This document shows, one piece after another, positions 19,685 through 26,000 of a stretch of 26,000 nucleotides of DNA. A program made the position numbers and the translations under genes. Under the pieces are notes generated by a model. The model was not told the origin of the DNA. It saw nothing but the letters and a program-made list of their open reading frames with translations, and searched no databases. The stretch is from Elsinoe ampelina. Taxonomy: Eukaryota. The DNA is taken from the NCBI GenBank assembly GCA_010093995.1, contig ML992501.1, forward strand, positions 2,607,320 through 2,633,319, in the 5' to 3' direction. The first letter of the stretch is position 1, and each line of letters starts with the position of its first letter.

Positions 19685-20324
19685 GCTCCAGAAGGTCTTG
19701 GCGTTATCAGTCTGGAGGCGCCTCCCGAAACTGACAGAACGTTTTGCCCGTACCCAAGCGAACTCCTGTGACATGCACCGCTCCCAATAATAATTCTTCC
19801 ATCTCGTCATTTCGGCCCTTTGTGATGCCCTGTCCTTGATGCTGGCGACCGACTGTGGGTATCATTTCCTCTTCTCTACCTGTGTTCATCCCGTCTCGGC
19901 CACATCATAATCCATGGAAAATTAAGCAATCCACCTCCATTACCACACGGTGGGAATCACTATATGCAAATCCCCGTGGCGCTCGCACTAATCGGCGCAC
20001 CTACCGGGACAGCGCCACAGAAAGCGAGATTGCGGCGGCGTGCATGACCAGTTTCCACCCCTGCTTTCTTCCGCCGTAATGAAGGGGAGCTGTCGACGGC
20101 GGCATCTCGTTTCAACATGCGGCTTTGCTTAGGCGAGGCCTTCTCTAGGGGACGCCTACACATGTATTTGACCTCCAAACCGCCTTGAGTGAGTTTGTTT
20201 CCTCACCACATCGCCTTTTTACATTCACAGAGCTGGGTCTCTTGTTTCTACGTCTCTAGTCTAGACGTCCATTCGTTCAAATTTGCTCACCGCAGTCACT
20301 CATTCCAACACTACCAAATTCACA

Positions 20325-21359
20325 ATGAAGTCCTTTATCGCCGCCCTGCCCTTGTTGGCAGCCACCGCCACCGCCCACACCACCTTCCAGGCCCTCTGGG
20401 TCGACGGTGTTGCCCAGGGCAAGATGACCACCTCCAACATCCGTCACAACTGGGCCGACCCAGAGTCAAACTACCCCCTCAAGGATGTCACCGCCCCTGA
20501 GATTGCCTGCAACAAGTGGGGTTCCACCCCGGCCTCCAAGAAGGTCACTGTCAAGGCCGGTGCCAAGGTCACCGCCGAGTGGCACCACGAGCCTACTCAG
20601 AAGTCCGGTGACGCCGACGAGCCCATCGCCCTTTCCCACAAGGGACCCATCATGGCCTACCTCGGTAAGGTCGACGATGCCAGCACCGCTAGCCCTACCG
20701 GTGTCAAATGGTTCAAGATCTTCGAGGACACCAAGGACAGCTCCGGCAAGTGGGCCGTCGAGCGTTTCTACAACGCCAAGGGTATGATCGACTTCTCCAT
20801 CCCATCCTGCGTCGCCAACGGTGACTACTTCCTCCGTGTCGAAATCATCGGTCTGCACGAGGCCGACCGCGCCGGTGGCGCCCAGCTCTACCCAGAGTGC
20901 GCCCAGATCTCCATCACCGGCGGCGGCTCTGCCAACCCGGCCACCGTCAGCTTCCCAGGTGCCTACATCCAGGACGGCGTCGGACTTTCCTACAACCTCT
21001 ACTCGGGCAACGCTCCTTACACCGCCCCTGGCCCCCGCCCATTCACCTGCGACGCCAGCGGTGGCAGCCCAGCCCCAGCCCCGGCCCCATCCTCCAGCAG
21101 CGCCGCCGCTCCTGCTCCTGCCCCAACCACCCTCCAGACCTCCACCCGCAGCACCACCGTCCGCCCCACTGTCCCCACCACCACCCGCGCCAGCGCACCC
21201 CCAAGCTACCCCAGCGCCCCGGCCTCATCAAGCGCCGCCGCCCCATCCCCAGTGCCAACCAGCACCACCCCCACCACCCCAGGTGCCCCAACCAAGGCCG
21301 AGATCGAGAGCTTCTTCGCCGAGATCATGGCGCTGTACAACACGTGGAAGGGGCAATAG
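20325..21359 (+). CDS. AA9 lytic polysaccharide monooxygenase with P/S/T linker and a short C-terminal helix (344 aa, intronless)
   Basis: Signal peptide MKSFIAALPLLAATATA then His1 (HTTFQ); SHKGP (second His of the brace); WFKIFE; YFLRVEIIGLH; AQLYPECAQ (Q-x-Y); VSFPGAY; no CBM1. Confidence 0.96.
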   Translation: MKSFIAALPLLAATATAHTTFQALWVDGVAQGKMTTSNIRHNWADPESNYPLKDVTAPEIACNKWGSTPASKKVTVKAGAKVTAEWHHEPTQKSGDADEPIALSHKGPIMAYLGKVDDASTASPTGVKWFKIFEDTKDSSGKWAVERFYNAKGMIDFSIPSCVANGDYFLRVEIIGLHEADRAGGAQLYPECAQISITGGGSANPATVSFPGAYIQDGVGLSYNLYSGNAPYTAPGPRPFTCDASGGSPAPAPAPSSSSAAAPAPAPTTLQTSTRSTTVRPTVPTTTRASAPPSYPSAPASSSAAAPSPVPTSTTPTTPGAPTKAEIESFFAEIMALYNTWKGQ

Positions 21360-22058
21360 ACGAGTCACTGGACGGGAGGGAGAGAAACCTCCACCCTTCG
21401 GGACGATGATGACAAGGGGTTGATGGACAGGCATATAGAAGGGTTGGGTCCAGGCAGGACACAGGGAGGGGAGATTTCACTTCTAGATATCACGCAAGGG
21501 GGAGAAGGGATACTTGGATTGTATAAATGATAACCTCTTTTTTACCATTGACTTGGTGTTTCATTCACTGCATGTCAGTTTGATTTCATTAAGACTTGTA
21601 TATTGATAATGGATGCTCATCTCACGCGTGCTACAGTATATATCGCAAAAAGCCAAAAGCATGAAGTAAGCCCAACCGGTGCGATCCACTGCGATGCAAA
21701 ATAATCATGCAAGGCCTCCCCTCAGGCCGCGGGCAAAAAGCGCCTCCTTCCCAGCCAAAGCAGCGCCCGCCACCCGGTCATTTCTCCGTCTCCACCCCTG
21801 AACGTGTGCCTGGCGTTTCAGGCCGCACACCCTCTTGCGCTTTTTCATCTCGGACGTCACACGTGGTCCTGACGATTAATATCGATGCTCGTGATCGGTC
21901 TATCGCGTGGGTTTGGGAACTATTTTCTCATGTGGGAAAGTGGTGAGCGATGATGGACGTTGATTGCCCTAATACTTGGTGCCACGCCGGGTCTTGGGAA
22001 TGGTAGGGCAGGAAGCTTCGAGAAAGTAGGAGGCTTTTTGACTTCTGTGTGGTGAGGT

Positions 22059-22200
22059 TGTTGTAACTGGCAAATCGGATCGAGAGACGTGTATTTCATT
22101 CAGAGAGTTATAATAACCAATTTATCTACTGTGCGTGCGCTGACTTATTAGTGCCAGTTCTTTAGTACTAGAGAAGCTGTACTAGCCTTCTATTACAACA
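22059..22200 (-). repeat. 142-bp 3' LTR of the Copia element
   Basis: Perfect 8-bp terminal inverted repeat TGTTGTAA (22059-22066) ... TTACAACA (22193-22200), directly abutting the PPT. Confidence 0.88.
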
Positions 22201-22210
22201 CTCCCCCTCT
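22201..22210 (-). other. Polypurine tract (plus-strand priming site)
   Basis: Minus strand reads AGAGGGGGAG immediately before the TGTTG of the LTR. Confidence 0.88.
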
Positions 22211-22560
22211 AGTATAGATTATTAAAGCTAGAGAACTGTCCTATTATATGTAAGTAAAGTAATTAGCTTATTACTTTATCTCTTTATAATTACTTATAAT
22301 TATTAGTGTTAGCTAATTATTAGTGAGAATTTACTATTAGTTTAGCTTATAATTGCTAGCAATAATAGTAACTATTAACAATAGCTAGGCAGCTATTGTT
22401 TATGTAAATAGACTAGCTTATAAGTCTTAATTAAAGAGATATAAGTATTTAACTAGCCTCTTTATAGTTTCTCCTTCCTTTATTACACTTATAGTAGTAG
22501 CTTCTTCTTTTATATAACACTTTTACCTTCTTACTATACTATATTAATAACACTTATAAT

Positions 22561-23714
22561 ATAAGCGCTATAGTGTAGTAATAGCTAGGTATTAGTAGCA
22601 TTACTACTAGTACTAGTGCTCTAAGTAGTCTACTAGGTAGCGGAGGTAGTAGTAAGAAAAGAAATTCTCTATTAAGGTTACCTAGTACTTCTAATATTAA
22701 TTATAATACTACTATAAGACTAATTACTTATCTTAATACTCTTAGTAAGTAGCTATAAAGTATTAATAGCACAAGCTAACATTAATAGCCTAATTAACTT
22801 AGACTTTAACTTAATAGTTAATCGACATAATCTAGAATACTCTTCTTAGACTTAGAATAATTAGTTATTATAACTATACTAACTTATATCCTATCTAGAG
22901 GTCTATAGTAGTCTAGGCCTTTAGTACCTATAGTATATACCTAGTAGTTACTAACCCTATTCTAGTTAAGGATCTAACTAAGCAAGTTAACCTTACTAGA
23001 TCTACTAACTACTCTACTACTTTAATAGCTTCTAGTGCTACTAGTAGAGTAGTCTACTATAGTACTAATTACTATACTAAGTATTAGAGATCTAACCCTA
23101 GTAATAATTAGAGTAAGGGTAAGGGTAGTAAGTTTAGTAAGTATATTACTTTACCTAGTTAGCTTAATAAGGCCTATACTTGCTATGCTTATAGCAACTA
23201 ATATACTAGATATTCCTTAGCTAACTATACTCTAACTCTAAGGCCTATTAGCTCTCCTAAACCTATAAGGACTCTAAGTAGCTTAAGGGTTATTACCTAG
23301 CCTATTCTATATAGCCTAATATACTTACTAATAGAGCTCTCTAGGTCTATCTCTTTTAGTAGTACTTTGCCTTAGAGGTTCTTACTAAGGGCCTATATAC
23401 TAGAGGTATTATTAGGTATAGTTAATACCTTAATAACTTATACTAACTCTTACTACTTTATAGTAGTCCCTATAAACTTTGTAGATTCTACTAATCTAAC
23501 TACTACTAAGGTTTATAACTTAGCTACTATAGTAATAAACTATATAGTAGAGCTTATAAGAATTATAGCTACTAGCTACCCTAGTTAGCTTTCTCCTATT
23601 TATACCTTTATACTAGGCCTAGTACTAATAAGGTATAGTAGGTCTAGATCTAATACTTCTATAAGGTCTACTAGTAGTAATAAAGGAAGAAGTTCTTCTT
23701 CTATAAAGAAGTAA
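22561..23714 (+). pseudogene. RIP-inactivated, intron-containing antisense cargo gene in the Copia element (DUF3716-like Cys-rich protein, ~370 codons); exons ~22561-22744, 22789-~23714
   Basis: Intact intron GTAAGT (22745) / GCTAAC (22775) / TAG (22788) joins two protein-like frames. De-RIPed core RSANYSAALM..TG...CTKC...GKFGKCVTLPGQLNKACTCCAYSN..TRCSL. Start (ATA from ATG) and stop are inferred. Confidence 0.7.
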
Positions 23715-23959
23715 TTTAAGGTAGAGAATAGGTAGGAGTTATTAAGGGTAATAATAGTACTAAGTAGTAGATATAGCTTAGGTATAAGTAGCTAGTAATA
23801 GAGTTATAATAGCTTTTCCTTTCTCTCTTCTTAATAATAAAGTAATTTACTTTAAGCTTTAGACAAATAAGATAGCTTAATAAGTAGTAGTAGTATAAAT
23901 AATATACTTAAAATAATAATATATATAAAATCTAAATAAGTATATAGTATAGATATATA

Positions 23960-26000
23960 CTAAGTAATTAGCCTTTACTAATTAATTAAGGATCTTATTA
24001 GGAGACTTAGGCTTTATAAGTATATTAGCTAATTACTAAGTTATATTAATATACTTAAGCTTAATTACTCTAAGTTTATACTACTCTCTATAGTAATAAT
24101 TCCTTAGATTAATATACTTAGATCTCCTTAAGTTAGTATAATCTCTTATAAGTTTAATAGCTAATTTATTATTAATAAAGACTATAGTTAGACTAAGGTA
24201 AATATTAGTAAGTAGCCTAAGTTTAATAATAAGATTTCTTAACTAATTAATCTCTCTATAGGTCTTAGTAAGAGTAAGGTATTTAGCCTTAGTACTTAAT
24301 AATATAATAATCTTCTATAGCCTTAACTTCTAAATAACTAGTATACTAAGTATATAAATAATAGTGCTAGATATAGATCTTATAGTTAATCTATCTCTAG
24401 TAAAGTCTAAGTTAGAGTAGGCCTTAATTATATTAACTAATAGTCTATTAGTTTTCTTAAAGGTAAAGCTCTTTATAATAGTTCTATTAATATACCTCTA
24501 GATCTATTTAGCTATAACTATATAAGCTATAGTTAGATTCTAAAGGAACCTAGCTAGGTAATTAGTAGTATAGCTAATATTAGGCCTTATATTATTAGCT
24601 AGATATTATAATTTACTAATAATCCTATTAAATATCTTATAGTACTAAGTATTAACTTAGCTATTAGTTAGTTTATAGAGTTAATTAATAGAATACTTTA
24701 TAGTTCTTACTTAGTAAAGATTATAGCCTTTAAGCTTCTCCTTTAAGTAGTGTAATTACTTAATCTTAATTATGTCTTTAGTTCTATAAAGTTAAATACT
24801 AAGAAAGAGGTTTAAGTTTATAATCTTTATTAGAAACTTAAGATAAAGATCCTTAACTAGCTTATCTATATACTTCTACCTAGTAGTAATAATCCTAAAG
24901 TTATTAATATATATAAGAACTATATAATACTTATTAATAAAGAGATAGATATTACTATAGAATCTAATAAAACTAAGTAATAGAAGTACCTTAACTATAG
25001 CGTTATACTAGAGAGTAGTAGCTTACTTAAGCCTATATAAGCCCTTTATAAGAACAATAAGCTTATTCTATTTACTAGGAATTAGTACGCCTTCTAGGTA
25101 GAAGATATAGTTCTTAATATTAATATCTAGTCTAAGGAATATAGTAACTATATCTACTATTATAATAACCTAGTTATAATAAAGAGTATATATAAGAATT
25201 ACTCTTCTAGTTTTAGCTCTTAGTATTAGTATAAAGGTTCTAATAAAGTTAATACCTACTCTTTAAGTAAAGCTCCTTATAGTCTAATAAGCTTTATATC
25301 TTTTAACTTTGCTATTAGTAAGCCTCTTAGTCTTAAAGACCTATTTATCTATTATTAGTCTAATACCTCTTAGTGCCTATAATTTCTTAATAATTAAAAA
25401 GGTTTTAGAGTTAGTTAGAGCCTTCTACTCTACCTCTATTATAGCTTACTAGTAATAACCTTTAAGAGAGATTAGTATATCTCTTACTATTTATAGGTCT
25501 AGCTTAAAATTAATAGCTATAGATCTAATAATCTTACTATTATTAAGTTTCTTATAATTAATCTAGTAATATATTCTAAGGGACCTTCTAATAGTTTCTT
25601 ATAGTAAGAAAGATCTTTTCCTTTTACTAGTTAAAGGTTATATATTAAATAGTATAATAAGGAAGTTAATATCCTTATTCTATATATATATTAGTAGTTA
25701 ATTAACATTAACTATAGAATTAAAGGTTAAATGTAGTTTACTAATAACTTTAAGTAGTAGTATTATAAAGTCTTTACCTTTATAATTAGTAATATTAAGT
25801 TACTTCCTCTATTTATTAACAGGTTAAGGATCTAGTTTAGAATATTAGTATTACTTCCTCTATTCTTTAATAGGGGTAGATAGTTATTTATATTTAGGAA
25901 TTAAGGGGTAGTTAGGTGTTAGTTATTTAGCCTAAGTAGTTTATAGATTCTTATAACTAAAGAGTAGTTAATTATAATTATAGCTATAAGCTGCCTAATA
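23960..26000 (-). pseudogene. Copia pol remnant (reverse transcriptase and RNase H)
   Basis: RT and RNase H motifs as listed for the element; stops within the motifs read are TAA/TAG, derivable from CAA/CAG/TGG. The left boundary is approximate. Confidence 0.9.

Follow-up and report, generated by a model that had tools for sequence, protein, structure and literature searches.

A stop-poor frame opposite gag-pol in a Ty1/Copia retrotransposon of Elsinoe ampelina, a probable relic of an additional gene

Antisense additional genes in LTR retrotransposons

Additional open reading frames (ORFs) that run opposite to gag-pol are already known as a kind, both from long terminal repeat (LTR) retrotransposons of plants and from Boty of Botrytis. 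Here we describe what may well be the remnant of another such ORF, in a Ty1/Copia element at the end of a 26,000-nucleotide stretch of the genome of Elsinoe ampelina (GenBank assembly GCA_010093995.1, contig ML992501.1, positions 2,607,320 to 2,633,319 of the forward strand). This whole stretch is referred to below as the window, and all positions are counted from its first letter. In plants, according to the available sections of PMC7264820, additional ORFs lying antisense between pol and the 3' LTR occur in most copies of their elements and have no database similarity, the examples being gene23 of Grande and the ORFs of RIRE2, Retand, and PvRetro13; transcription from an own promoter has been demonstrated for gene23 of maize Grande. 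From outside the plants, the same sections cite Boty of Botrytis cinerea for an additional antisense ORF, and the gene in question is brtn (Zhao et al. 2011, Virology 417:248, as cited in the available part of PMC8365987).

Set beside these systems as the sources describe them, the present locus resembles the plant ORFs of this type (aORF-3R; maize Grande, rice RIRE2, Silene Retand, and Phaseolus PvRetro13) in lying between pol and the 3' LTR and in having no clear database similarity, and probably also in its antisense orientation and its presence in much of the family. The plant elements are Ty3/Gypsy elements with intact ORFs, some of them with RNA and localisation data, whereas the locus treated here is a mutated DNA relic alone. 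Boty is alike in being a fungal LTR retrotransposon with an extra gene opposite gag-pol, and unlike in being Ty3/Gypsy, while the present element is Ty1/Copia and has been destroyed by repeat-induced point mutation (RIP). A more distant parallel is HBZ of human T-cell leukaemia virus 1 (HTLV-1), which lies antisense at the 3' end of its retroelement and encodes a basic leucine zipper protein of a vertebrate retrovirus. Here the likeness would lie in an antisense gene transcribed from the 3' LTR side; the type of protein and the vertebrate retroviral setting are different, and similarity to the relic is not expected. An antisense promoter inside the 3' LTR of HTLV is mentioned in the available sections of PMC7264820.

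One further comparison concerns the product. REP9 of Zymoseptoria tritici is a class II (IS3EU) transposon with two DUF3716 genes (available part of PMC8232023). It is alike in being a mobile element of a fungus whose accessory genes belong to the family proposed for the relic, and unlike in being a DNA transposon rather than a retrotransposon and in having genes of DUF3716 type where the present ORF is a putative member. The DUF3716 cargo of REP9 raises the prior for the DUF3716 idea without testing it.

In the literature searched, Copia, antisense ORF, and fungal together returned nothing, Boty with brtn was the sole fungal case of an antisense additional gene, and DUF3716 had few mentions. 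A term search of the available part of a survey of fungal LTR elements (PMC3248453) met no mention of antisense or additional ORFs. Within this literature, an antisense additional ORF in a fungal Copia may be undescribed so far.

A stop-poor frame opposite pol

The frame in question is on the plus strand, opposite to the minus-strand pol gene, and lies wholly within the spacer of about 1.7 kb that separates the end of pol (near 23960) from the polypurine tract (PPT; 22201-22210). Between 22917 and 23714, in the phase of 22563, it holds 8 TAA/TAG stops in 266 codons, whereas the remaining five frames have 41, 52, 60, 25, and 25. Chance expectation was taken from 300 dinucleotide-preserving shuffles of 22201-26000, from each of which the best 266-codon window in six frames was kept: none of the 300 had 8 stops or fewer, and the shuffle minimum was 14. 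The real pol frame has 13 stops in its best window of the same length. No tandem repeats were found under 22917-23714, so the openness of the frame has no repeat explanation.

The signal has a definite upstream end. In 22791-22916 the plus frame carries 7 stops in 42 codons, and all six frames there carry 4 to 8 per 41-42 codons. Since RIP turns ATG into ATA, the ATA at 22935 is a candidate start, possibly a former ATG. In this copy the frame is closed, with 8 in-frame stops. With moderate confidence, we interpret the segment as what RIP has left of an antisense additional ORF of the pol-3' LTR type, belonging to a highly repeated Ty1/Copia family.

RIP and the probable coding strand of the relic

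RIP is indicated where TpA/ApT exceeds 0.89 and (CpA+TpG)/(ApC+GpT) falls below 1.03. The interior of the element lies beyond both thresholds, with values of 2.61 and 0.10 for 22561-23714 and of 1.83 and 0.06 for the pol part (23961-26000); the host part of the window gives 0.55 and 1.30. Across 22201-26000, CpA, TpG, and also CpG each stand at about 0.1 of expectation. Saturating RIP was simulated on 1659 host codons from the window by turning all CpA, TpG, and CpG into TpA. The host exons treated in this way have a GC content of 0.305 (0.302 is observed in the segment and 0.235 in pol), with stop rates of 6.7% in sense and 8.6% in in-phase antisense, the corresponding rates in the real pol being 6.9% and 8.8%. 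RIP in the element appears saturated. Saturation makes copies converge again, so that a deRIP consensus built from this genome, as the preliminary description of the stretch had proposed, would be limited in what it could recover.

Because RIP is strand-symmetric, it leaves codon statistics that are nearly palindromic, and the coding strand has to be sought in the differences that survive. Stop rates in the segment are 3.0% on the plus and 9.4% on the minus strand, to be compared with the simulated 6.7% for sense and 8.6% for in-phase antisense; by our arithmetic from these simulated rates, the odds for plus as the sense strand are about 100:1. At second codon positions the plus reading has more C (0.259) than G (0.169), as in ordinary proteins, and the AA9 gene of the host part has 0.416 and 0.173. 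These differences favour plus, the strand opposite to gag-pol, as the coding strand without proving it.

Probable presence in the family and the passenger alternative

Contigs of four sequencing runs were placed on the window at 80% likeness; the runs from other organisms had been picked with this very stretch and indicate presence only. From the organism's own run (X1), 7320 contig pieces were placed, covering 30 of 30 bins. By our arithmetic, summed word depth in this run averaged about 82,000 over the eight bins of 22478-23709, about 80,000 over twelve pol bins, and 153 in the unique flank; summed contig depth of this kind is no measure of copy number, nor of how the parts of a gene compare. 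The segment is probably repeated about as much as pol, and so part of the family. Nearly all differences among copies in the own run were transitions, namely 47 of A>G, 39 of T>C, 35 of G>A, and 28 of C>T, with 4 transversions beside them. Apart from the deletion variant described below, a contig joint in this run skips 22283-22377.

Related DNA is also present under other organism labels. Run X3 contains a 558-nt contig over 22891-23448 with 57 differences and a 606-nt contig over 23471-24068 with 30 differences, the latter bridging the stop of the ORF and the end of pol. Run X4, with a third label, contributes 207 nt over 22965-23171 with 7 differences. In run X5 (organism D), cover extends on the LTR side to about 22490 and resumes from bin 23710-23863 on. 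Over 22632-23709 it is nil in 5 of 7 bins and 0.73 and 5.88 in the other two, and one contig diverges after 22493; this gap is bridged by no contig and was not used as evidence for loss or replacement of the segment.

These data bear on the alternative that the segment is passenger DNA, that is, a piece of some host gene or other mobile element that was captured by transduction or nested insertion in an ancestor of the family and then amplified with it without service to the element. Its GC content and TpA share match those of RIP-simulated host exons, pol being poorer in GC, and a codon model trained on such exons fits the plus reading of the segment well. An own-run contig with a depth of 198, about single-copy, joins 22266 directly to 23719, and this one contig represents a form of the element that lacks 1452 nt (22267-23718), ORF included. 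Transduction of genes by LTR elements has been described (available sections of PMC7264820). The same sections state, however, that transduced genes usually occur in one or a few copies, whereas here the cover equals that of pol. The segment is without flanking direct repeats and without terminal repeats of its own, the best inverted pair being one of 16 nt at 22471/23677, away from the edges. Nor was any transposase, reverse transcriptase, or gag family matched in it, although RVT_2 is detectable in pol in the same state of RIP. Taking both sides together, we regard a passenger origin as unlikely. The narrower case of a one-off nested insertion, which the preliminary description had named as speaking against a gene of the element, is improbable with cover of the same order as that of pol.

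The spliced DUF3716 model

The preliminary description had gone further than an antisense ORF. It proposed two exons (22561-22744 and 22789-23714) around an intact fungal intron of 44 nt, together encoding a nuclear DUF3716-type Cys/Zn regulator of the element. The letters on which it was built are all in place: ATA AGC GCT at 22561, GTAAGT at 22745, GCTAAC at 22775, a TAG that ends at 22788, and a TAA at 23712. The core that it quoted, YTKY...KGKGSKFSKYITLPS*LNKAYTCYAYSN*YTRYSL (asterisks are stops), is likewise present in the frame of 22563.

The gene structure drawn from these letters fares less well. The intron-like motif has a single occurrence on the two strands of the 3.8 kb, which is not beyond chance, since 32% of 300 dinucleotide shuffles contain at least one. 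RIP itself creates AT-rich words like this one. The supposed first exon is not depleted in stops, its frame over 22561-22790 having 8 in 76 codons, no better than its neighbours; the counts there include 8 of 76 in +1, 8 of 76 in +2, and 4 of 76 in -2. No coding signal was found in this exon or in the first 126 nt of the second (22791-22916). In favour of the first exon, codon statistics prefer the phase of an ORF at 22585-22743 by about 12 nats, though this ORF was picked for being open. The intact intron and the two-exon gene are therefore not upheld, since shuffles yield a similar motif so often and the flanking exon parts carry no stop depletion. What survives of the proposed antisense gene between pol and the 3' LTR is the probable ORF relic at 22917-23714. 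An unspliced ORF, perhaps from the ATA at 22935, is the simpler gene model.

The core itself has 13 Tyr or Cys codons per 60 residues, where the sense frame of pol reaches a maximum of 9 and non-coding frames of the same RIP-altered DNA range from 10 to 18. RIP permits Cys as the ancestor of every Tyr that was reverted, Gly for the Ser codons, and Val for Ile, and the core would be compatible with a Cys/His-rich domain. CpG has also been erased, however, so that each TAY may descend from a Tyr, His, Cys, or Arg codon, and reversion to Cys is a choice. The core bears a likeness to the DUF3716 pattern, which we take to consist of CxxC, G.F..CV, C..C.Y, and RCS. Six residues separate the last Tyr from the 'CS', where the motif of the preliminary description has three.

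Searches aimed at the product gave little to hold on to. The PF12511 model (DUF3716) has 59 positions and a cut-off of 22 bits, and its silence on the segment is weak evidence, because RIP turns TGY (Cys) into TAY; RVT_2 can still be detected under RIP because it is long and strongly conserved. A PF12511 search of 14 control genomes matched in 0 of 14. The RIP-degenerate DNA pattern of the core (23117-23149) had no match in viral, metagenome, or prokaryote contigs. For the native 70-residue ORF at 23376-23585, the ESM Atlas returned top scores of 0.81-0.82, at chance level and with no family. AlphaFold2 gave the read-through a mean pLDDT of 38.5 and a pTM of 0.24; it draws helices after the core, in a model too weak to trust.

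DUF3716 identity of the relic is a tentative assignment that we consider doubtful. The full spliced model has on its side the letters of the intron motif, the permitted Cys, Gly, and Val ancestors, the Tyr/Cys content of the core relative to pol, and the DUF3716 genes carried by REP9 (available part of PMC8232023). With the frequency of the motif in shuffles, the stops in both of its upstream parts, the ambiguous ancestry of TAY, the Tyr/Cys content of non-coding frames, the deviating spacing, and the silence of PF12511 set against these, we judge it distinctly unlikely.

The element and its surroundings

From 22059 to the end of the window, the DNA is a Ty1/Copia LTR retrotransposon on the minus strand, saturated with RIP. 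The features are collected in Table 1. The anatomy given in the preliminary description (a minus-strand Copia, a PPT at 22210, and a gap of about 1.7 kb between pol and PPT) agrees with our own, in which RVT_2, LTR, and PPT were all located. The outer LTR edge is supported by own-run contigs, among which the contig of the unique flank reaches no further than 22086 and loose ends whose flanks differ occur at 22059. The pattern of the LTR/PPT junction occurs once in the window and had no match when viral and metagenome contigs were searched. Position 26000, where the window stops, is still inside pol, and the 5' LTR, the primer-binding site, and the target-site duplication lie beyond it.

Table 1. 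Features of the retrotransposon, of the probable antisense relic, and of the adjoining host gene (window positions)
Feature	Position	Strand	Remarks
AA9 (lytic polysaccharide monooxygenase) gene	20265-21356		E 1.1e-56; Ser/Thr/Pro/Ala-rich tail
3' LTR of Copia element	22059-22200	-	142 bp; ends TGTTGTAA...TTACAACA; less RIP-marked than interior
Polypurine tract AGAGGGGGAG (minus strand)	22201-22210	-	Abuts LTR; read directly
Spacer without frame preference	22211-22916	.	Would hold the promoter or leader of the antisense ORF, if any; includes 'exon 1' (22561-22744)
Intron-like motif GTAAGT...GCTAAC...TAG	22745-22788	+	44 nt; real intron not supported
Probable relic of additional ORF antisense to gag-pol	22917-23714	+	266 codons; 8 TAA/TAG stops; final TAA at 23712
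Tyr/Cys-codon-rich core (Cys/Zn domain of the preliminary description)	23055-23234	+	13 of 60 residues; sole surviving TGC at 23181
Short spacer, stop of antisense ORF to end of pol	23715-23960	.	Imperfect 28-nt tandem array, 23865-23967
Copia pol (reverse transcriptase and RNase H part)	23961-25997	-	RIP-saturated; runs off window

With TAA/TAG read through, the minus strand matches RVT_2 (PF07727) at 24699-25367 with an E-value of 5.7e-19 and 69.1 bits (cut-off 31.6). The C-terminal motif of pol, LANILIKP, is of the usual Copia type and lies at 24032, with the next stop at 23984-23982. A protein search with the pol read-through returned a single distant match, a plant Copia polyprotein with 21% identity (E 2.5e-16), and a search of viral contigs for related loci with this read-through and the plant Copia protein found none. 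The three minus frames of 22211-25997 matched RVT_2 only in Pfam, plus a sub-threshold TPR_CAND1 at E 0.073. In 23715-23960, minus frames 0 and 1 carry just 3 of 81 and 4 of 81 stops, which could reflect a frameshifted tail of pol or chance. RIP has left far fewer marks on the 142-bp LTR than on the interior, with (CpA+TpG)/(ApC+GpT) at 0.85 and GC at 0.39 compared with 0.04-0.10 and 0.22-0.30, which fits with short repeats largely escaping RIP.

Upstream of the element, the window up to about 22058 is ordinary gene-dense DNA of a filamentous ascomycete, with Pfam families that include an epimerase, a P450, DNA polymerase delta subunit 4, DcpS, a UCH peptidase, a Git3-type receptor, a kinase, and AA9. 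GC content drops at 22059, from about 0.53 before it to 0.22-0.30 from there to the end of the window. The transposon sits just downstream of the AA9 gene, with about 700 nt from gene end to LTR, and the unique flank (21400-22058) is without RIP leakage.

Discussion

If the segment is the relic of an additional ORF, the gene would in the live family have been transcribed toward pol, either by a promoter of its own on the side of the LTR or by the 3' LTR itself. As a gene antisense to the genomic RNA, it would have been copied along in every retrotransposition. In the simplest model it would have been unspliced, with a start perhaps at ATA 22935. By analogy with Grande gene23, its product would most likely have served the element as an accessory factor that is nuclear or binds nucleic acid. 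The copy in this window is dead.

Besides the limit on the depth figures and the deletion variant given above, several results weigh against an additional antisense ORF. No start codon survives in the plus frame. The codon model trained on RIP-simulated host exons favours plus by 21 nats (13.8 and 7.4 in the two halves), but this figure is unvalidated because the same model fails on the strand of pol itself, where it gives a tie overall and is wrong by 11.6 nats in the reverse transcriptase part. A codon table trained on pol finds the phase of the segment (+0/-2) and leaves the strands tied, at -3.590 and -3.589 nats per codon. Over the latter half of the segment, phases could not be told apart with the host-trained codon model. 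The codon phase of the relic is that of pol (+0/-2), as a sense-strand extension would also have. Seven read-through translations of the plus frame matched no Pfam family at E<=10, PF12511 included; phmmer with the plus-frame read-through had no match among 1.84 billion representatives, and two word-indexed protein searches, at near and shorter lengths, had none either. A phmmer search of the PDB gave an acyl carrier protein at E 0.13 only, which we take as noise.

The shared phase and the tied strands would also suit the reading that there is no antisense gene at all, the stop-poor frame being the mirror of a coding extension or third ORF in minus frame 2 or else a compositional accident of RIP, and plant elements are known to have env-like ORFs in sense downstream of pol (available sections of PMC7264820), but this is very unlikely with 25 minus stops against 8 on plus, an antisense stop rate of 3.0% where simulation and pol give 8.6-8.8%, a minus reading with more G than C at second codon positions (unusual for proteins), shuffles that never came down to 8 stops, and minus frames that match RVT_2 only, bar the weak TPR_CAND1.

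The relic of an antisense additional ORF thus remains the interpretation that we favour. Antisense extra genes are widespread in LTR retrotransposons, none of them with known function, and such a gene in a Copia family of a fungus would be the second fungal case. The locus itself is a dead, RIP-saturated relic and points only to intact relatives in other fungi. Beyond this lies a wider proposition, which we hold to be rather unlikely: that a highly repeated Ty1/Copia lineage of a filamentous ascomycete bore a Cys-rich antisense gene of DUF3716 type, so that, together with the DUF3716 genes of REP9, this family would recur as an accessory module in fungal mobile elements that are unrelated to each other. 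If true, no antisense accessory gene would have been described before in a fungal Copia. Such a module might for example be a nuclear factor that works in favour of transposition or against silencing, and should the DUF3716 reading hold, an orphan domain would gain a testable mobile-element context.

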